Below, in pieces: positions 1,417-15,202 of a stretch of DNA of 64,000 nucleotides. A program made the translations under genes and the position numbers. This stretch comes from Escherichia phage vB_EcoP_PE006. The stretch lies in sequence record OQ938541.1; one strand, written 5' to 3'. The notes under the pieces were generated by a model that ran no database searches, was not told where the DNA came from, and worked only from the letters and a program-made list of their open reading frames with translations. Position 1 is the stretch's first letter; every line of letters begins with the position of its first letter.

Positions 1417-2325
1417 TTATGCTGCCTGACGTGCCGCCATAATCTCAGCTGCCTTGCGCAATACTTCTTCTTCTTCTGCTTTCGCAGCTTGTTCGGTACG
1501 GGTAGCAACCGTTGAAGAGATACGACCGCGCAGACTTTCTAACTTCTCCTGAATAGCCGCAATAGTCTTTTCCATTTCATCAGCGTATGAATCGAGTGAT
1601 TCTAATTCCTTGCTTGATGCGTTCATCAGATAATCGTCTGAGATCGCTACAGTTGAAGCCGTGACTTTCTTGATGAGTGAATCAAAGGACTTTTTAACTT
1701 TCCCCACGTCTTCACTTAAGGCGATAGTGTTGTCACTGGTAGCGCCATTGCGCTCATCAGCCAATAATTTGGCTTCAATACGGATTGCATTCAATCGTTC
1801 GACCAAAGCGTAAACATCTTGGTTAAAATCTTCCTTGTTTTTCGCCGGGATTTGCAGATGTGCCGCCACGTTGTCATTGCAACCCTTGTAGAAGTTAGGG
1901 TTATCGACTTCAATTTCACGGCCTAAAGCAAAGTTTTCGAAAGCATTTGACCAGCGAGCGCGGTTTTGTTCCATTTTGGCCTTAATTTGCGCTTCTTTCG
2001 CATCTTCTTTCGCTTTCGCTTCACCTTCCAGATTAATCCACTTTTTACGACCGTTTGCCGCATCAGTGTTAAACTTGATGGGAGTTAAGAAAGTAATTGC
2101 AGTGGCGATCACATCCATATCGCGGAAACGTTCAGTTAACAGAAAATCGACTGCCGACTGCAATACGTCCAGCTTTTTACCGTTACTGCGGAAGTGCTGC
2201 AAGTGCCCTAACAGAAAATTAGAAACATCTTGCTTAATCGCCGCGTTATTGCTACGAATGTTGTTAGCCAGTGCGTTAAAACCAGATTCTTTTACCAGAT
2301 TAAAAATTTTAGCCATGATATTCAC
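1417..2325 (-). CDS. hypothetical protein (302 aa)
   Basis: Long ORF with AGGTGA Shine-Dalgarno about 5 nt upstream of the ATG; Ala/Glu-rich helical C-terminus; no catalytic motif recognised. Confidence 0.6.
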   Translation of the reverse strand: MNIMAKIFNLVKESGFNALANNIRSNNAAIKQDVSNFLLGHLQHFRSNGKKLDVLQSAVDFLLTERFRDMDVIATAITFLTPIKFNTDAANGRKKWINLEGEAKAKEDAKEAQIKAKMEQNRARWSNAFENFALGREIEVDNPNFYKGCNDNVAAHLQIPAKNKEDFNQDVYALVERLNAIRIEAKLLADERNGATSDNTIALSEDVGKVKKSFDSLIKKVTASTVAISDDYLMNASSKELESLDSYADEMEKTIAAIQEKLESLRGRISSTVATRTEQAAKAEEEEVLRKAAEIMAARQAA

Positions 2326-3139
2326 CTTTCAATTGTAAGGGCACTATGCCCCGCTCTCTATGAGCTTTTTAAGTCGCCATTGACTTATCAATAAACACTC
2401 ATTGTTAAGTAATTATTGATAAGTGGGGCGGTCTTATCAGGAGTTAACCTTGCCGCCCCCTTATCTGTGATGTTTCATCTGGTATCTTTAATTAGTCGCT
2501 ATAAACGAAGCCGACCTGATAGCGATGATCAATCATCACAATAAGGCTATGCGTCCGACACTATTTAATTACATTGCTGTAACCGTCGGCAATATCGTTT
2601 ACTTTGTTTTCGCTCCCGCTTATCCTTTGTGCCAACTCCTAACCGCTAACCATCGCCCACTACGGGAGGTTATTGCGGAAAGAGATCATTGACCGCCTAA
2701 TATTCCGGCGTTTTATATCTTTCGGCGGGTTTACTACATAACCCGACTATGTACTTCCGTCATAAGACGAATCTCAAGCCGTTCACATCGTAAACGTTCG
2801 CATTAAACCTTATTGTTAAATAGCAATTTGCCACTTTTTAACCACTCCCCGCCGCTCTCAATTGAGCGTTAATTCGTCGGGATTGCCTACCCTGATTAAC
2901 TTCTTTCACTGTAGCACCGTGTTAGCGATGGCCGCCGCTACCCTTTAACCGTGGGCGATTAGTTTAAGCCGTTGCGTGTACTCAATGAATCCGTCTAACA
3001 GTGGTGACGTTTCCAGTTAAGGGATTGTAAGACTGTTTACCCTGATAGTTTAGGGGCCTTACACCGTTTTATCTGGTATGCTGTCCGATGGTTATTATCT
3101 TCCAGCATATGCAACCGATATATGGGAATGTTTAAATTA

Positions 3140-3967
3140 TTAAAGAGCGGTAAATCTGTCAGCGTGCTTTCTCACGCTACGCAACTGTTAGCCGTTGTTA
3201 CGCTTTTCACTGAAGCGGTGATTTGCTTAAGTGTGCTCATTATGGACCATGATGTTTTTGCTGTCAACCGCTTTTTTAATCTTTTTCGTCGTTCCCGCTA
3301 TTGGGAGGATATATCAACCAGCTTTATTTGATTGAAGATTAAGCGATGAGGCTAAAATCATGATTCACATTGTTAAAGAGCGGTTACTGCATTTACAGCT
3401 TAACACATCGTGTTAGCTTGTCAATCTCTTTTTTATCATCTTCTTTTATTCTTTTCCCTTATCTCGCGTGAATCTATGCGAAAGGGCAAGATGATAAATT
3501 TTTAAAGAGCGGGATGTTTCACGTCATCGCTGACTTAAGCTCATTATAGGTTAGGCTTTCCAGTTGTCAAATACTTTTTCAAGTATTTTTCACTTTCTAG
3601 CCTGATTTTTAAAGAGCGTTTAAAGCTGTATGGCTCCCATAACACCATTTGATAGTCAGATAACCTGCGACTATTCCGGGGCATGGTATCCGCCTGCCTG
3701 CGTCTGACTTGCTTCACTCACTAGGGAGTTACTTGAGCGGTCATCTTGTCTTTCTAAGCTCATTATAGTTCAGGCTTTCCAGCTGTCAAACACTTTTTCA
3801 AGTATTTTTCACTTTCTAGCCTGATTTTTAAAGAGCGGGGCAATTTCTTGCCTTGTATGTTTTACATCGTACCCGATGAAAATCAGTATACGCCAGCTTT
3901 CACGAAGTGCAATAGGGTAAGGCAAATTATTTTAAACTTTTTCACTATGGGGAAGATAAAAGAGCGG
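3140..3967. repeat. six dispersed copies of an 11-bp motif TTAAAGAGCGG (one or two 1-nt variants)
   Basis: Copies near 3140, 3373, 3502, 3609, 3828 and 3957, all in one orientation, in a region with no convincing ORF. Confidence 0.6.
3541..3837. repeat. pair of near-identical ~80-bp direct repeats, each ending in the TTAAAGAGCG motif
   Basis: aagctcattatag...ggctttccag(t/c)tgtcaaa(t/c)actttttcaagtatttttcactttctagcctgatttttaaagagcg occurs at about 3541-3618 and 3760-3837. Confidence 0.6.
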
Positions 3968-4067
3968 GCGCACGTGATACATCAAAGGAAACGGCTTGTA
4001 AAGCGATAAAAAGCGGCCTAAAACGCGCTACAGCGAACTAAAAGGGAGTAAGGTATACAATCACCTT

Positions 4068-4096
4068 AGAAAAGAAAAAAGCCTCATGGCGAGGCT
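4068..4096 (-). terminator. candidate rho-independent terminator (minus-strand sense)
   Basis: AGCCTC / GAGGCT stem with a 5-nt loop, followed on the minus-strand transcript by a U-run. Confidence 0.45.
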
Positions 4097-4395
4097 TTCA
4101 GGAGGCTTTAAAACATCAGATAGATTATGACCATAGGCATGACTACGGCACAATAAAGGAGAAAGATTAGTCCTATAGATTTAAGCATTACCCTAAACCG
4201 ATCTCAATTAGTTTAAGAATATCGAAAGCGGCAACAATCAGTAAATAGTTTAAAGAAACGAAGCCAATGACAAACAAAAACAGAAAGAACACAACCGGAC
4301 ACCTAAAAAACGTAAGAATAAAGCATATCAGCGACGAACAACGCCACTGCAACAACGAATAAGCAACGCAAAAAATAATCATGAATCATTAATTG

Positions 4396-4656
4396 CTACC
4401 CTTGCCAAAAAAATGCTACTCTAATCTGTTCCACTTCTTCCAGCGACAACAAAATCCCACGTTGCGCCAAATACTGACCAACTATCTGTAATCTTTCTAG
4501 AAGAGCGATAGCGGGGAAATCGATCGCATTAATATTATTACCTACAATAAACAAGATTAAGCACTTGTCAGAATCGTCAGTATATGAGAAATCGATCTCA
4601 CCATAATTATGAGATGGTATAGTAAAGCTGTATTCTTTATTCATTTTTATCACCAT
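4396..4656 (-). CDS. hypothetical protein (86 aa)
   Basis: Third ORF of a compact three-gene minus-strand cassette with 7-nt overlap. Confidence 0.4.
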   Translation of the reverse strand: MVIKMNKEYSFTIPSHNYGEIDFSYTDDSDKCLILFIVGNNINAIDFPAIALLERLQIVGQYLAQRGILLSLEEVEQIRVAFFWQG

Positions 4657-4901
4657 TTTGGCAGATCACAATCAAGAAGACCGGCAAGCGACAAATTACC
4701 GTCAACATAAATCGAACGGAAGTCATCGCGGTTAATATCAATGCGCACCAATTGGAGCCACCTTTTGGCCTCGCTAAAACTCATGGAACAAAAGGCAACG
4801 GTAGGCAGTATTACGTCACCTTCACGCAAGCCGAACGCAATAAAAGTATCACAAACAAAACAAGAAACACCGCTGGATAGTTTGATCACTTTGTTACTCA
4901 T
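4650..4901 (-). CDS. hypothetical protein (83 aa)
   Basis: Middle ORF of the cassette. Confidence 0.4.
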   Translation of the reverse strand: MSNKVIKLSSGVSCFVCDTFIAFGLREGDVILPTVAFCSMSFSEAKRWLQLVRIDINRDDFRSIYVDGNLSLAGLLDCDLPKW

Positions 4902-4928
4902 TTTTTGTTACTCCTGAAAATTGGTTAT

Positions 4929-5420
4929 TTACTTACTGGCCTTGATGCAGTTGGCTAAATTAATGTGAACGGTATAAACAGCGTTATCAGCGTTATTGTA
5001 AACAGTAGTCGCAATCATCGACTGATTAACCGGGCCATAACTCACTAGATTGGTGACAGCTTTAACGTCTTTGTAACGTTGTACAGTGCCATACGTCACC
5101 ATATCCGCATCGTTATCAGTACGCTTGAGAACTAGATCACTGTTAGGCTGATTATCTAGTGTTTTGGTACTAACGACCAGACCATCACGGGAAACGTTAC
5201 TAAATTTAACCTTTAAAACGACCTGATTGGTGTCACTATCAGCACCGTTGCAAATCATCCAACCTTTATTGATGGAACTAACGAAGACACTAGCCGCATC
5301 AGTTGCGGAAGTAGGGCCAGCGATAGCCTTGTCAGAAAGAGATGTGACCAGTGCACTAACACCGATCGCGGCGACTAGCGCATAACTTGCCAGATTAATC
5401 ATCTGCATCGGTTTAGTCAT
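4929..5420 (-). CDS. predicted secreted protein (N-terminal signal peptide)
   Basis: MTKPMQMINLASYALVAAIGVSALVTSLS...AIAG looks like a Sec signal peptide; rest is Ser/Thr/Asn/Val-rich. Confidence 0.5.
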   Translation of the reverse strand: MTKPMQMINLASYALVAAIGVSALVTSLSDKAIAGPTSATDAASVFVSSINKGWMICNGADSDTNQVVLKVKFSNVSRDGLVVSTKTLDNQPNSDLVLKRTDNDADMVTYGTVQRYKDVKAVTNLVSYGPVNQSMIATTVYNNADNAVYTVHINLANCIKASK

Positions 5421-5769
5421 TTGTGAAGCCTCATTGATATGTAATAGATAGGGATATAATAGGACACGCTTTCTTACATTGCAATCATCTTTCTAACTTT
5501 CTTTCTTTCTACTAAAAGTAGCGCCATTAAACTTACTAGGCTTATTTCTCGGGCTTAACTTGCTATCAGTGAACGACTCGACTACTTCACAAACAACCAA
5601 AACAAGTAAAGGAAACACCACAGCCATTGCCATCATTATTAAGATAATCATTTCTATCACTCCAATCACTCAATCAATAGGCTTCAATTTACTACTACTT
5701 AACAAGGAAGACAAGCGACCACGGATGTAACGCTATCGCTACGGGTAACAGACCAACATACCAGGACGA

Positions 5770-6186
5770 ACGGGGAACAAACATCCGCATAACAGACCAC
5801 GGGGAAACATAGCAAGATAATGCGGTAATAATATACCACTTAAATAATTGTATAACTCAAACATCAAAGATCATTCGCTACGCTCATGCACGCTGAAAAA
5901 GAAAGTAATAAAAGAAATAATAACATACATCAATCATTATCCACTTAATTAATACATACATCATTATTGCACTCATAATCATTACCATTGAAACTATTAT
6001 CAACGTAACTATGGGGAGCTGCGACTGTTACATGACGGTATTATATCGCCTTAAACTGATCGTTATACAGACCTTTATACAGTGCTAGCCTTTCTCCTAC
6101 TCTTTAAAGGGGAACTAAATAAACGGGTAGGTAATGAATAGGATGGTATACACGGGGAAAGAATAACGGGGAGTAGGCACGGGGAA
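5770..6186. repeat. iteron-like ACGGGGAA repeats (5 copies)
   Basis: ACGGGGA(A/G) at about 5770, 5799, 6152, 6166 and 6179 in non-coding DNA. Confidence 0.5.
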
Positions 6187-6572
6187 AAGCTGGAACGTTG
6201 ATAGGGATGTAAAGGCATTGCCAATAACCATTTTTTATTTGAGGACTCCCCCTTTTTGAGAAACACGCTGCGAGCGCCTAGCCCCATTCGGTCAAATCAG
6301 AATTTTAAACAGATGTATATAAGCTTAAGAGAGAACTTAATGAATCTAATTAAAGTATTTAGACGGATGAAGTGTAAGCACAATTACTATCTTCTTCGTA
6401 AAGCTTACGGGGATGAAAGAATACATGGTCTCTACTTATCAACATGGAAGTGTAGGGAATGTGGTAAGTTGAGATTCAGTACGTGGGTGGATAAGCCTTA
6501 ATGGAAATAATCTTTTGGTTAGTAATAGTCTTCTGTTTATTCATCTGCTTCTCTATAGCAAGGTGTATCAAG

Positions 6573-6708
6573 TATGACTAATGACATGGCCTTAACATGA
6601 GGGTGCCTTTATGACATGCCCTTTACTTCAGCGTACACGGGTTGTTGGTATGAGGTAGTCATCTTTGATGACGTGGCCTTTACGGGTTAGATATGACTAG
6701 CCCTTTAT
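6573..6708. repeat. iteron-like repeats ATGAC(A/G/T)(T/A)G(G/C)CCTTTA(C/T) (4 copies)
   Basis: Copies at about 6581, 6611, 6667 and 6693, just upstream of the first plus-strand genes. Confidence 0.5.
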
Positions 6709-6828
6709 ACTTTTATTCAGAGGATAGAATATGAAGTTTTTAAAAGAACTACACTCCTTGATTTATAAGGACATAGTGTACTCAGTATCCCGCAATGCAT
6801 GGTTCTACCAAAAAGGTGGCAACGGTGA

Positions 6829-7119
6829 ATGGGTAGATTGAATCTTATTCAGAGGAGAAGTATTATGGATTTAGTATTAGACTTTTTATCAGAGATGGTG
6901 CCTCGATTCAGAACGGAGACATACGCTTTCGTAATCAACAGTGACTCTGAAGATGGGATGGAAGCTACATGCCTAGGTCGACTTGTTGACTTGGATGATG
7001 ATGACGATTTCGATATTACAATTGATGTGAGTAGCTTAGGTTGGCTCTTCTTCAGAGCATTCCGCACTTACAAAGTAGAAACATACAAAGATTACAGCAA
7101 GGGAGATACAGATGAATAA
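6829..7119 (+). CDS. hypothetical acidic protein
   Basis: Asp-rich stretch (DLDDDDDFDITID); first ORF of the plus-strand block; true start may be the internal Met. Confidence 0.45.
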   Translation: MGRLNLIQRRSIMDLVLDFLSEMVPRFRTETYAFVINSDSEDGMEATCLGRLVDLDDDDDFDITIDVSSLGWLFFRAFRTYKVETYKDYSKGDTDE

Positions 7120-7681
7120 TTTAATCAAAGCGATGGACCTTAACGAGTATAATTCACAGCTATGTCGCTCTGGCTGTAGCTTACAACATTTAGAAACTAT
7201 GGGAAATGTTTCAGGGTTAGCTGTACAAGATTTGTATAGTGGAAGTATTCTTAAACCAAATATTACGGAGAACAAAAACATGTTAGATTTGATTCATACT
7301 ACTCGCCCTGATTCTAAAACTAAAACACAACCATCTACTCTGGAAGTAATTGAATACGAATCTACTAAACATGATCACCTCCCTGACTATGCTCGTGCAA
7401 TGATTGAGATGATTGAAGAAGCTGAATATGAAATGCTCCATGACTACATTACCTCCAAAGATGAATGGCATCGTGATGTTCGAATCGAAGAAGATGGTAC
7501 AGAAACAATTACGTGGATTCACAAGAGTGAGTTAGTAGACGACGCACTGCGAGACTACGAAAATTTTTTGGTCGACGGCTCTATTCTTTTAGAGGAAGAG
7601 AAGGGTGTAGAACTTCCGTGGGAGGGTGAGACGATTGCTTTAGGTAAGATGTTTAACCTGTCCGTTGGTGATTGTAAGTAA
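7112..7681 (+). CDS. hypothetical protein (189 aa)
   Basis: Acidic ORF overlapping the previous gene by 8 nt; followed by a hairpin. Confidence 0.55.
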   Translation: MNNLIKAMDLNEYNSQLCRSGCSLQHLETMGNVSGLAVQDLYSGSILKPNITENKNMLDLIHTTRPDSKTKTQPSTLEVIEYESTKHDHLPDYARAMIEMIEEAEYEMLHDYITSKDEWHRDVRIEEDGTETITWIHKSELVDDALRDYENFLVDGSILLEEEKGVELPWEGETIALGKMFNLSVGDCK

Positions 7682-8329: not shown

Positions 8330-9871
8330 ATGTCATTAGATAAACAAATTTATGAAGCTCTAACTGGTAACAATCTTAGTGTAGAGGAAAAGAAAGCACT
8401 ATTGAATATGTTGAAAGAGCGTGACCAATGGAGGAAGTATAATAGGATTTTGTCTTTCAAGGCGTATGACTTCCAAAAGAAATTTTATGCAGCAGGATTG
8501 AAGCATCGCTTTAGATTCTTGTGTGCAGCGAACCGTGTTGGTAAATCTTATAGCGAGGCATACGAGTTTGCTTGTCATGTCACAGGTCGCTACCCAACTT
8601 GGTGGACAGGATATAAATTTAAAAGACCTATCTTAGCATGGGCAGTTGGTATTACAGGGGATTCCACAAGGAAGGTATTGCAAAAGGAATTGTTTGGTAC
8701 ACCTATCGGAAAGGATACAAATTTATTAGGGACAGGTGTCATTCCTCGTGATGCTATCGTCATTGATACGATAGAACGAGATGGTAACAAACTTCAAATC
8801 GTACAAATCAAACATCAAAATGAGAGAGGAGAGTTTGACGGTTTAAGTACATTAGAATTCCGTTCAACCCAACAGGGTGAACACACATTGATGGGTGCAA
8901 CAGTTGACTACATTTGGTTAGACGAAGAAGATCCATATGAGTCTATGGCTATATTCGCACAATGCGTCACACGTACACTCACAACTAAAGGTCTAGTTAC
9001 AATTACAGCTACACCAGAGAACGGTTTAACTGAACTGGTAGATAAATTTATGAAAGGTGAAGGGGATGAGAGCACAGGTTCTCTTTATTTCCAGAATGCT
9101 TCTTGGTGGGATGCTCATGCAGACCTAGGTGGACACATCACTGACCAAGATATAAAAGATATGACTGAAGGTATTCCAGCATGGCAGTTAGAGATGCGTT
9201 CAAAAGGTATGCCATTGTTAGGAAGTGGTTTGATATATGATGTATCGGATGACACAATTAAATGTGAACCATTCGAAATTCCTGATACGTGGAAACGTGT
9301 CTGTGCAATTGATATTGGTATTGATCACCCAACTGCTGCTGTTTGGACAGCTTACGACGCAAACACGGATACTATCTATGTTTACGACTCATATAAAGAA
9401 GGTGGCTTTACTCCAGTGTATCATGCTCCAGCTATTAATGGTCGTGGTCAGTGGATTCCTGTCATCCTACCGCATGATGCGGACAATACTGAGAAAGGTA
9501 GTGGCTCATCTGTTGCTCAATTCTATAAGAATGCAGGAGTTAACGTACAGAGTGAGACCTTCTACAACAAAATTGGAATGGATGGTAAAAAGAACTTCTT
9601 TGTAGAACCGGGAATCACAGATATCCGAGAAAGAATGATGAGTGGACGCTTTAAAGTCTTTAACACAGCCGCTAACGCTAAGCTATTCGAAGAGAAAGCT
9701 AGATATCATCGTAAGGTTGGTAAGATTATTAAAGAACATGATGACTTAATGGATGCAATGCGCTATTCAGCGTGCTCTGTTACACATCGTGGTCGCTCTA
9801 AGCATGATGTTAGCTACGGAAGCGCTTCTTTGTATGAGGCAAACGTAAGCAGATGGAATCAGAGCTACTAA
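8330..9871 (+). CDS. terL: terminase large subunit
   Basis: 513 aa with N-terminal Walker-A-like AANRVGKS, acidic Walker-B-like segment (YIWLDEED) and a C-terminal nuclease-like region; sits directly before the portal gene. Confidence 0.85.
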   Translation: MSLDKQIYEALTGNNLSVEEKKALLNMLKERDQWRKYNRILSFKAYDFQKKFYAAGLKHRFRFLCAANRVGKSYSEAYEFACHVTGRYPTWWTGYKFKRPILAWAVGITGDSTRKVLQKELFGTPIGKDTNLLGTGVIPRDAIVIDTIERDGNKLQIVQIKHQNERGEFDGLSTLEFRSTQQGEHTLMGATVDYIWLDEEDPYESMAIFAQCVTRTLTTKGLVTITATPENGLTELVDKFMKGEGDESTGSLYFQNASWWDAHADLGGHITDQDIKDMTEGIPAWQLEMRSKGMPLLGSGLIYDVSDDTIKCEPFEIPDTWKRVCAIDIGIDHPTAAVWTAYDANTDTIYVYDSYKEGGFTPVYHAPAINGRGQWIPVILPHDADNTEKGSGSSVAQFYKNAGVNVQSETFYNKIGMDGKKNFFVEPGITDIRERMMSGRFKVFNTAANAKLFEEKARYHRKVGKIIKEHDDLMDAMRYSACSVTHRGRSKHDVSYGSASLYEANVSRWNQSY

Positions 9872-9876
9872 AGTAA

Positions 9877-9905
9877 GGGGAGGTTTGTCCTCCCTTCTTT
9901 TATTT
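9877..9905 (+). terminator. hairpin plus T-run after the terminase gene
   Basis: GGGAGG / CCTCCC stem followed by TTCTTTTATTT. Confidence 0.45.
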
Positions 9906-9931
9906 AAGCTATCAACCGAGGGAGAGAATAG

Positions 9932-15193: not shown

Positions 15194-15202
15194 TAATGTA
15201 TA
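15194..15202 (+). promoter_or_regulatory. TAATGTATA promoter-like motif
   Basis: Exact TAATGTATA 34 nt upstream of the ATG at 15236, just after a terminator. Confidence 0.45.

Follow-up and report, generated by a model that had tools for sequence, protein, structure and literature searches.

The 64,000 nucleotides of the window, from Escherichia phage vB_EcoP_PE006, belong to a phiEco32-like phage (Gordonclarkvirinae) and form a permuted assembly. The original prediction described positions 2340-6830 as gene-poor and without coding capacity; this holds for 2317-4187 and about 5670-6339, the stretches truly free of genes, but not for 4188-5669 or 6340-6501, and the coding share of the interval comes to about 1.5 kb. 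Based on the ORF list and on homologous CDSs annotated in MN05 and phiEco32, five small early ORFs were placed on the minus strand (4188-4382, 4396-4656, 4650-4901, 4929-5420 and 5493-5669), all except the first having PHROG matches with E values of 1e-14 to 1e-100. They make up a right-end operon of small genes that runs from 5669 to 4188 and stops at a minus-strand intrinsic terminator (4099-4077), the homologue of the SU10 terminator at 74441. On the plus strand, the first small ORF of the left end (6340-6501, 53 aa) matched PHROG 7696 (E 8e-16).

Direct terminal repeats of 193 bp are among the published genome features of phiEco32, SU10 and YF01, and are also known for Paul; in the Paul and YF01 records the repeat is annotated with the same length. 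When aligned with both phiEco32 ends, the repeat was located at 6087-6279 (plus strand), in single copy in the permuted assembly, and records with mapped ends begin at the position corresponding to 6087. The idea of a genome terminus with a terminal repeat in this region was upheld by this alignment, which puts the physical ends of the genome at the predicted positions 6087 (left) and 6279 (right).

The four repeat families reported earlier were all recovered by sequence search and their coordinates confirmed. For ACGGGGA, the five copies listed as iterons were present on the plus strand (5770, 5799, 6152, 6166 and 6179), together with a sixth at 6407, but the total is not above chance (six against 2.66 expected). 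All six are on a single strand within 644 bp (5770-6413), three of them inside the terminal repeat, and phiEco32, Paul and YF01 also have this trio (6152-6185), of which 4E8 keeps a part. Four ATGAnnnSSCCTTWA repeats (6581-6707, plus strand) lie between genes in a gap of 230 bp, at 300-430 bp inward of the left end. The four copies claimed for ATGANNNSSCCTTWA were found, only at this place, against 0.06 expected, and arrays of one to five copies exist at the equivalent place in relatives; no significant RNA fold was detected in this repeat region (z -1.1). Judged by position only, both repeat families at the termini, ACGGGGA and ATGAnnnSSCCTTWA, are candidates for sites recognised during packaging or end processing.

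The early regulatory region with clustered early promoters that had been proposed was confirmed as a leftward row of sigma-70 promoters, three of consensus grade (P1, P3 and P4), one predicted in the literature (P2) and one weak (P5), which alternate with copies of boxA, the order on the transcript being promoter then boxA. All are on the minus strand. The promoter scan found P1 (3239-3267) as TTGACA-17-CATAAT, with 11/12 matches and an A-rich UP-like element upstream; neither its -35 nor its -10 varies among 21 genomes, and it appears in the list of SU10 early promoters. P2 (3397-3424, TTGACA-16-TAAGCT) has a weak -10 and was below the scan threshold; an identical sequence is listed as an SU10 early promoter, and relatives carry TTGACA-16-TAGAAT at this position. 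P3 (3543-3570) and P4 (3762-3789) both read TTGACA-16-TATAAT, with 12/12 matches in the scan, and lie in copies 1 and 2, respectively, of the direct repeat. Inspection of the sequence pointed to a possible weak promoter P5 (3885-3912, TTGCAC-16-TATACT), which was not reported by the scan. The direct repeat of ~80 bp proved to be real, as two copies of 83 nt (3536-3618 and 3755-3837) with 95% identity, but it is a duplicated promoter-plus-boxA module and not an iteron. Published features of phiEco32, SU10 and YF01 include sigma-70 early promoters in the gene 124-gene 125 spacer and a terminator. In the window, the early promoters are 2.4-3.0 kb from the right physical end, behind the separate small operon.

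The family described as six copies of TTAAAGAGCGG in 3140-3967 was exact at 3140, 3373, 3502 and 3828; the other two copies are also present, but those at 3608 (TTAAAGAGCGT) and 3957 (TAAAAGAGCGG) carry one mismatch. Read on the minus strand the motif is CGCUCUUUAA, which comparison with boxA reference sequences (PMC2724277 and the MG1655 rrnB leader) identifies as the boxA antitermination signal of the rRNA type. Transcripts initiating at this 11-bp motif, as once suggested, are not supported, the motif being the reverse complement of the boxA RNA signal, downstream of opposite-strand promoters. The 10-mer core CGCTCTTTAA (minus strand) occurs six times in the 64-kb window against 0.15 expected (0/100 shuffles), and five of these copies are clustered on the minus strand in 3140-3837. 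After each promoter, the form on the transcript is CGCUCUUUAA(A/C/U)AA.

The proximal boxA with its spacer, CGCUCUUUAAUAA (3137-3149), lies about +82 from the P1 transcription start; it reads CGCUCUUUAACAAUUUA in most relatives, where a 16-nt exact match to the E. coli rrn boxA and spacer was observed, and GCUCUUUAACAAUUUA is identical to the rrnB boxA-spacer. Immediately 5' of it is a boxB-like hairpin, AGCGUG-AGAAAG-CACGCU (3161-3178), which shows compensatory changes in the alignment (GCGUG/CACGC to GUGUG/CACAC, AACGUG/CACGUU and GAGGUG/CACCUC). Copy 2 (CGCUCUUUAACAA, 3370-3382) is about +14 from P2, and copy 3 (CGCUCUUUAAAAAUUUAUCA, 3499-3511), identical to the rrnB leader at 18/20 positions, is preceded by the hairpin GAUG-ACGUGAAA-CAUC (3528-3513). 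Motif search also gave copy 4 (3606-3618), which reads CGCUCUUUAAAAA as does copy 5 (3825-3837), the latter preceded by a GAAA-loop hairpin, GGCAA-GAAA-UUGCC (3852-3839); a degenerate boxA-like copy, CGCUCUUUUA, is found at 3957-3966. All these elements are on the minus strand. Several copies thus have a small purine-loop hairpin directly 5', in the boxB-then-boxA order of E. coli rrn, and comparison with the rrnB leader revealed no boxC-like UGUGUGGG after any of them. Three to five copies of boxA, each downstream of a promoter, were present in all relatives examined (three genera, the most divergent included). The T7 genome has CGCTCTTTAACAA at 812-824, 62 nt after promoter A3; to our knowledge, the importance of this boxA for T7 growth is not established. 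Points against antitermination are the missing boxC and the variable distance of boxA from its promoter (about +14 to about +143).

The last boxA is separated from the first early gene by ~810 nt of non-coding sequence that is conserved as strongly as the gene: 61% of its columns are invariant, compared with 28% for third codon positions in the adjacent gene, indels are very rare and the alignment of 22 genomes is nearly free of gaps. The consensus fold (RNAalifold) contained 233 pairs, 66 of them with compensatory changes, compared to 24.8±2.7 in shuffles and 3-8 in slid controls; 99.2% of cells in the consensus structure were paired, and the MFE z-score was -5.5. In held-out genomes, NC-B kept 228/232 pairs and TH34 222/232 (96-98%). 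The RNA was assigned to the minus strand because G-U accounted for 10.6% of pair cells and A-C for 0.4%. The predicted structure, of ~800 nt (2338-3136), has two large domains (about 3136-2837 and 2816-2538) and 3' hairpins, one of which is the GGGGCGG/CCGCCCC hairpin noticed near 2430 and present at 2425-2431/2453-2459. No conserved ORF reaching 20 aa and no 3-nt periodicity were found in the leader, nor any match in Rfam or similarity in E. coli genomes. It was found full length and in single copy in 96/96 subfamily records, in which the spacer is unannotated or filled with spurious small CDSs, and neither boxA nor a structured RNA in the spacer is mentioned in the published accounts of phiEco32-like genomes that were consulted. 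Its G content exceeds that of C (23.8% and 19.4%), the opposite of a C-rich Rho-loading site.

The alignment and the modelled fold together show a multi-domain, covariation-supported untranslated RNA that continues into the opening gene of the main early operon, a long leftward one, and the order of elements places the whole promoter row where it would feed this one previously unannotated RNA. The earlier suggestion of small RNAs was therefore right in that the region encodes non-coding RNA, but wrong about size, as it is one structured leader of ~0.8 kb. Selection this strong over ~800 nt argues that the RNA has its own function, as a stable RNA released by processing or as the scaffold of a ribonucleoprotein, and is not a passive spacer.

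As a whole, the interval is likely to comprise the joined ends of the genome and the region of early control in a phiEco32-like coliphage (Gordonclarkvirinae), in which early transcription is most likely organised as a Nus-protected unit resembling an rRNA operon. Host RNA polymerase starting at the early promoters would transcribe boxA within the first 15-90 nt; NusB-S10 would bind it and be joined by NusA and NusG, as at rrn leaders, making the elongation complex fast and Rho-resistant. The leader would need such protection: it puts 0.8 kb of highly expressed, untranslated RNA ahead of the first ribosome-binding site and would otherwise be a Rho target. Tandem UP-element promoters, an rrn-type nut-like site and a long structured RNA would copy the rRNA operon design, and the layout would extend that of T7, in which promoters A1-A3 are followed by the identical 13-mer.

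The transcribed boxA copies, and perhaps the structured RNA, could instead act mainly in trans as a decoy that titrates NusB-S10 (or SuhB or ribosomal proteins); the resulting collapse of rRNA transcription and ribosome assembly in the host would be part of host shut-off. For lambda, transcribed boxA has been described as competing for a host factor. The phage has five to six boxA per genome against one in T7, all behind consensus promoters, and their extended identity to the rrn boxA-spacer corresponds to the high-affinity form (Kd of 5-8 nM for rrnG BoxA, 80-90 nM for lambda nut). However, one boxA per promoter is equally expected of a cis-acting design after module duplication, and relatives have anything from 3 to 5 copies, so that the dose is not fixed. 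As the main role this seems doubtful, although it is compatible with antitermination and could be an added function.

It is improbable that the 11-bp motif works as double-stranded DNA, bound as an operator or activator site by a regulator (of phage or host origin) that controls the early promoters, and not as an RNA signal. The copies do sit between promoters and, in the duplicated module, the motif is fixed 38 bp upstream of the next -35, but the duplication explains this spacing, the remaining ones being about 62 to 105 bp. Moreover, the clustered copies are all in one orientation, that of the transcript, the match runs past the core into the rrn spacer (16-18 nt), the identical 13-mer is present in the T7 early leader, and downstream of the proximal copy there is only the leader and no promoter.

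In E. coli, mRNA-borne boxA in some cases (suhB) promotes rather than prevents termination. A similar negative role, with Nus factors aiding Rho termination or blocking translation of the first gene, would control the dosage of early expression or switch its timing. In single-sequence as well as consensus folds, the boxA flank (AUUUACC) pairs with the ribosome-binding site (GGUGAAU), and boxA with UAGAGAGCGG at 2360-2347. These long-range pairs are invariant, so covariation is no test of them, but the boxA/anti-boxA pairing is broken in three relatives, while a local hairpin at this place has a compensatory change, and the ribosome-binding site is ~800 nt from boxA, unlike in suhB, which makes this reading quite improbable.

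Finally, a replication origin, also considered in the original prediction, is highly improbable; in the reading weighed, iterons would be combined with a transcription-activated origin and the leader would be conserved for a DNA-level function. Several repeat families do lie within non-coding DNA, the T7 primary origin sits behind tandem promoters and the cumulative GC-skew minimum falls at ~5700-6300, but on balance nothing was found that points to an origin, as each family can be explained or placed more specifically (promoter modules, boxA, terminal repeat), the compensatory changes and the G-U versus A-C asymmetry imply selection on a single strand in one sense, the skew minimum is not independent evidence because it coincides with the physical ends and the switch in transcription direction, and both an AT-rich unwinding element and an adjacent initiator gene are absent.

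The rRNA-operon-like reading was compared with known systems. The E. coli rrn leader has tandem P1/P2 promoters with UP elements, a boxB-boxA-boxC nut-like site, an antitermination complex of NusA/B/E/G, SuhB and S4, and a long RNA that is structured and not translated. In the phage, likewise, strong sigma-70 promoters stand in tandem with A-rich sequence upstream, boxA comes after a hairpin, boxA and spacer are identical to those of rrn over 16-18 nt, GCUCUUUAACAAUUUA(UC), and the product is a long, purine-rich, highly structured, untranslated RNA. Unlike rrn, it has no boxC, boxA carries C and not U at position 1 (lambda and T7 have C too), one boxA per promoter is repeated 3-6 times, and the RNA, without detectable similarity to rRNA or any E. 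coli sequence, runs into early protein genes.

In the T7 early region, promoters A1, A2 and A3 are followed by boxA, the RNase III site R0.3 and gene 0.3. Both are virulent coliphages whose direct terminal repeats are short; in both, host-type early promoters stand in tandem close to a genome end and the untranslated leader contains the identical 13-mer CGCTCTTTAACAA. T7 has one boxA after three promoters, located 0.5-0.75 kb from the end, and a leader of ~100 nt before gene 0.3, whereas in the phage each promoter, at 2.4-3.0 kb, has its own boxA and ~810 nt of structured RNA precede the first gene. The lambda nutL/nutR sites, composed of boxA CGCUCUUA, spacer and boxB and used by N protein with Nus factors, share the CGCUCUU core, and the distal phage copies CGCUCUUUAAAAAU resemble nutL cgcucuuaaaaauuaa; in contrast to lambda, the phage hairpin is 5' and not 3' of boxA, its boxA contains an extra U, as the rrn or 'consensus' form does, and no N-like protein was identified, short of a systematic search.

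The large RNAs GOLLD and ROOL are also located in phages and belong to the same 0.6-0.8 kb size class, and we know of no coupling of either to boxA or early promoters. HK022 put and EAR are, like the phage leader, leader RNAs upstream of a long operon, where they act in cis as antiterminators, but they are only ~70-120 nt compared to ~800 nt. The terminal repeat, three promoters and terminator published for phiEco32, SU10 and YF01 are direct homologues of those in the window.

Read on the minus strand, the region at 2340-6830 contained sigma-70 promoters, followed by a hairpin and boxA, then by a 0.8-kb structured untranslated RNA and then by the early operon; this anatomy was conserved among relatives, and its signals matched those of the rrn operons and of T7. 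By megablast, the region matched 95 phage records, all of them phiEco32-like podophages of E. coli or Shigella at 85-90% identity, which belong to the Gordonclarkvirinae (Kuravirus and allies). The records with mapped ends (Paul, YF01, SU10 and others) started at position 438 of the query 5650-6900, which is 6087 of the window, and a 193-bp direct terminal repeat is annotated as the first 193 bases of Paul and YF01. According to the papers on SU10 and YF01, phages of this group have 193-bp repeats with blunt ends and package concatemers in the manner of T7. End-to-end alignment with phiEco32 (both ends), Paul and YF01 located the direct terminal repeat at 6087-6279, with boundaries identical to those of the experimentally mapped repeats. 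This makes the window a permuted assembly, in which the repeat is present once. Judging from the mapped ends of the relatives, the genome has its right end to the left of 6279 and its left end to the right of 6087.

The four repeat families and the GGGGCGG/CCGCCCC hairpin of the original prediction were all found in the sequence. Its description of the region as gene-poor held for a 1.9-kb gene-free spacer, but not for 4188-5669 (minus strand) and 6340-6501 (plus strand), which are occupied by small ORFs. Four of the five minus-strand ORFs at 4188-5669, as well as that at 6340-6501, gave PHROG-type family matches (E 1e-14 to 1e-100), and homologues of the small ORFs are annotated in MN05 and phiEco32, the latter having an equal 1.9-kb spacer without genes between genes 124 and 125. 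In the public records of relatives, the tiny ORFs (80-130 aa) of the right-end operon bear implausible transferred names, such as 'terminase', 'polymerase', 'DNA polymerase B region', 'tail protein', 'ABC transporter' and 'DNA helicase'.

A promoter scan of the minus strand detected TTGACA-16-TATAAT at 3789-3762 (P4) and at 3570-3543 (P3) and TTGACA-17-CATAAT at 3267-3239 (P1), which match the sigma-70 hexamers at 11-12 of 12 positions. Homologues of these three, together with TTGACA-16-TAAGCT (P2, 3424-3397, minus strand), are listed in the SU10 paper as sigma-70 early promoters 'in the spacer', along with a terminator corresponding to 4099-4077. A weak candidate, P5 (3912-3885, minus strand), was added by reading of the sequence, and an A/T-rich segment was present upstream of every promoter from P1 to P5. 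The total of promoter-like matches in the region, 12 vs 13.2 expected, was not above chance, so the case rests on match quality, on the literature and on the conservation of P1, whose -35 and -10 hexamers were invariant in 21 genomes. Middle or late promoters of the gp36 type were absent from the interval, the nearest (TAATGTATA) being at 15194.

The 11-bp motif of the original prediction, TTAAAGAGCGG, becomes CCGCUCUUUAA when read on the minus strand, and by its sequence it appears to be boxA. Its core, CGCTCTTTAA, was found six times in the 64 kb, vs 0.15 expected, with five copies on the minus strand at 3140-3837. The copies could be extended by three bases to CGCUCUUUAA(U/C/A)AA, with five exact CGCUCUUUAA and one CGCUCUUUUA. 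Published boxA sequences are UGCUCUUUA for rrn, or ugcucuuuaacaauuua with the spacer, and CGCUCUUA for lambda, with cgcucuuaaaaauuaa in nutL and cgcucuuacacauucca in nutR (PMC2724277). The rrnB leader of MG1655, checked directly, reads CACTGCTCTTTAACAATTTATCAGACAATCTGTGTGGGCAC, and boxA copy 3 of the window, CGCUCUUUAAAAAUUUAUCA, matched it at 18 of 20 positions. The proximal boxA of most relatives, CGCUCUUUAACAAUUUA, was identical to rrn over 16 nt, and one copy in the relative NC-B over 18 nt.

The position of the motif was also that of a boxA, as all the clustered copies lay on the minus strand, 3' of a minus-strand sigma-70 promoter and within the untranslated part of the transcript, an arrangement likewise found in the 13 relatives mapped. 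Directly 5' of the proximal boxA (3137-3149), a boxB-type hairpin, AGCGUG-AGAAAG-CACGCU, showed several compensatory changes, and hairpins with GAAA-containing loops preceded copies 3 and 5 (copy 5 at 3825-3837), though not clearly copies 2 and 4. A GU-rich element like the boxC of rrn (UGUGUGGG) was not found within 45 nt downstream of any boxA copy. A sixth exact boxA 13-mer, CGCTCTTTAACAA, was present at 358-370 on the plus strand, antisense inside the minus-strand ORF 149-727, and also at the homologous site of NJ01 (7953); it could reflect chance conservation in a coding region or be a signal on an antisense transcript.

The two copies of an 83-bp direct repeat, at 3536-3618 and 3755-3837, each comprised a boxA, a UP-like element, a -35, a -10 and a start, and the repeat is best described as a duplicated promoter-boxA module. 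Promoters alternated with boxA copies in the same way in 13 relatives from three genera. In these, the proximal module (start near -915 and boxA at -833 from the ATG) and the second one (start near -1080 and boxA at -1066) were fixed, and the distal modules differed in number.

A stretch of about 830 nt on the minus strand, which separates the proximal boxA (3149) from the first early gene (ATG at 2316), contained no conserved ORF. Among 11 genomes, invariant columns amounted to 61% in this leader, 63% in the adjacent gene and 28% at the third codon positions of the gene, and there were almost no indels in the leader; against SU7, the leader was 89% and the gene 74% identical. A coding leader was rejected, as 3-nt periodicity and conserved ORFs of at least 20 aa were both absent, and a host origin was rejected by a blastn of 5,426 E. 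coli genomes that gave no match. The leader element (3136-2338) was found at full length and once per genome in 96 of 96 records of the subfamily, where it mostly lacks annotation or has small 'hypothetical' CDSs drawn over it; several of the relatives' records annotate 3-5 'hypothetical proteins' over the structured RNA. In IMG/VR, the matches of an invariant leader 22-mer were confined to five contigs of the same phages. The leader matched no covariance model of Rfam 15, which includes GOLLD, ROOL, OLE, group I/II introns, RNase P, tmRNA and 6S; a permissive scan of both strands of 1500-7500 returned a single chance-level match, Ysr197 (17.7 bits, with the gathering score at 167). A dedicated search for tRNA and tmRNA genes was also negative.

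The RNAalifold consensus of the leader alignment of 22 genomes consisted of 233 pairs in 41 helices, with 99.2% of the cells paired. Pair-preserving changes on both sides were observed in 66 pairs, vs 24.8±2.7 in column shuffles, none of 500 shuffles reaching 66, and vs 3-8 when the 3' partners were slid by 1-3 columns. G-U cells made up 10.6% and A-C cells 0.4%, which identifies the minus-sense transcript as the strand that folds. The leader of the window alone folded at -259.6 kcal/mol (z = -5.5). Thus, both compensatory changes above the controls and strand asymmetry were present, as expected of a structured RNA under selection. As the consensus structure was derived from the same alignment used for counting, which favours it, two unused genomes, NC-B and TH34, were added. 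NC-B, 77% identical to the window, kept 228 of 232 pairs, with 37 changed on both sides, and TH34, 75% identical, kept 222 of 232, with 35 changed on both sides. The long-range helix closing the second domain, which had been invariant until then, showed a compensatory change from C-G to U-A in TH34. The GGGGCGG/CCGCCCC hairpin of the original prediction proved to be a helix of the leader RNA in which five pairs covary.

Two segments within the leader resemble boxA or its complement. The first, UGCUAUUUAACAA at 2813-2825 (minus strand), was invariant in 22 of 22 genomes and differs by one base from the rrn boxA; the change, C to A, is that of the lambda boxA16 mutant, described as binding NusB-S10 about 40-fold worse. 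As it is base-paired in the consensus fold (helices 18 and 19), this segment is more likely to be part of the structure than to serve as a Nus site. The second, UAGAGAGCGGGGCA at 2347-2360 (minus strand), lies just 5' of the ribosome-binding site; it is the complement of boxA copy 5 and a partial complement of the remaining copies, and the single-sequence minimum-energy fold joined the proximal boxA region to it and to the Shine-Dalgarno region. A boxA/anti-boxA pairing (3842-3829 with 2360-2347) was present in the single-sequence fold and was rejected, because three relatives break it and covariation does not support it.

The first early gene (1417-2316, minus strand) adjoins the RNA in 96 of 96 genomes. 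Its 299-aa product had no match in Pfam or PDB and no informative PHROG match, and it looks helical or coiled-coil from a reading of the translation; it is a candidate for an RNA partner or a host-takeover factor. In the distantly related Salmonella phage 7-11, of C3 morphotype, about 1 kb of the minus strand (8868-9917) is also non-coding and lies between the right end and the first early gene (gene 151). This stretch has no boxA and folded well below shuffles (z -3.9), and it may represent a comparable structured early leader from a different family.

Two repeat families were located around the genome ends. Three copies of ACGGGGA, conserved in relatives, lay inside the terminal repeat; the other three were internal to the ends, two of them about 300 bp from the right one and the third about 130 bp from the left one. 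The ATGAnnnSSCCTTWA array, statistically clear and kept as an array in relatives, was found 300-430 bp inside the left end, flanked by two small ORFs. The T7 terminal repeat is also flanked by short repeat arrays. From their position, both families are suggested to be candidate recognition sites for packaging or end processing. One left-end copy, GGGUGCCUUUAUGAC, resembles the T7 motif GSCCTTTATGA at T7 882 and 1460, as does GGGTGCCTTTATGAC at 6597-6615 (plus strand) in the left-end array (T7 882-892 and 1460-1470); motifs of this type were also detected in a few relatives, and the T7 ones are the RNase III sites R0.3 and R0.5. That the left-end repeats could themselves be RNase III sites is an unproven idea, the RNA fold of the region being no better than that of shuffles (z -1.1).

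In the mechanism that we propose, NusB-S10 would bind the boxA of the nascent transcript, at a time when synthesis of any 3' pairing partner is still far off, and would turn the polymerase into an rrn-type, fast, Rho-resistant elongation complex. Such a complex would be needed to cross the long untranslated RNA and may help it to fold. The leader RNA was purine-rich and C-poor, a composition that likewise makes Rho loading less likely. That selection runs so deep over about 800 nt argues for a leader RNA with a function of its own. Along this line, we consider it possible, though rather unlikely, that the ~0.8-kb RNA represents a novel class of large phage non-coding RNAs with complex folds, produced early and abundantly from a mini rRNA-operon mimic and acting in trans in host takeover. 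The mimic would then consist of the tandem UP-element promoters and the rrn-type boxB-boxA site, and the RNA would be more than a 5' leader; it could, for example, act as a scaffold or as a decoy, with Nus factors, ribosomal proteins or some other host machinery as its target. Other, less likely explanations are a role of the boxA sites as a decoy for Nus factors, a role of the 11-bp motif as a DNA operator, and a negative control of the suhB type. The replication origin offered by the original prediction appears the weakest, as the iteron spacings were irregular, no AT-rich block stood out and the neighbouring proteins had no replication-initiator signature, so that the region did not resemble iteron-type origins.

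The phiEco32-like phages are a model for phage control of host RNA polymerase, through the sigma factor gp36 and through gp79. For close relatives, earlier publications already contain the terminal repeat, three of the promoters and the terminator, whereas neither boxA nor a structured RNA was mentioned in the literature covered, which comprised the papers on SU10 and YF01 among others. The addition made here would be an rRNA-operon-like transcription unit in a virulent phage, predicted to be protected by boxA, with an RNA family outside Rfam. If this is true, these virulent phages borrow the host rRNA antitermination system for early transcription, a phage group for which this was unconsidered becomes tied to the Nus factors and to Rho in its role of a barrier against phages, and host nus, rho and suhB are predicted to affect infection. 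The ~800-nt RNA would extend the very short list of large, well-supported phage structured RNAs, and E. coli, with its tractable genetics, offers direct access to its function. These phages are widely isolated for therapy, with 1.9 kb per genome blank or mis-annotated; annotators can now place the terminal repeat, promoters, boxA sites and RNA by their exact coordinates, and engineers are warned that the 'spacer' is not a neutral insertion site.

The 14-mer CGCTCTTTAACAAT matched at least 120 viral contigs in an IMG/VR scan, by our own estimate roughly the chance number for such a collection. In five contigs of about 40 kb (L043, L050, L059, L066 and L107), it lay about 620-800 nt from a contig end, and T7-like contigs seem to have the motif ~750-850 nt from an end. 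This suggests that a boxA behind the early promoters is conserved among T7-like phages, the contigs being presumed T7-like by their size of 39-41 kb. T7 itself has an exact CGCTCTTTAACAA at 812-824, 62 nt past promoter A3 and ahead of gene 0.3, and the order of hairpin and then boxA found here is that of boxB and then boxA in rrn.
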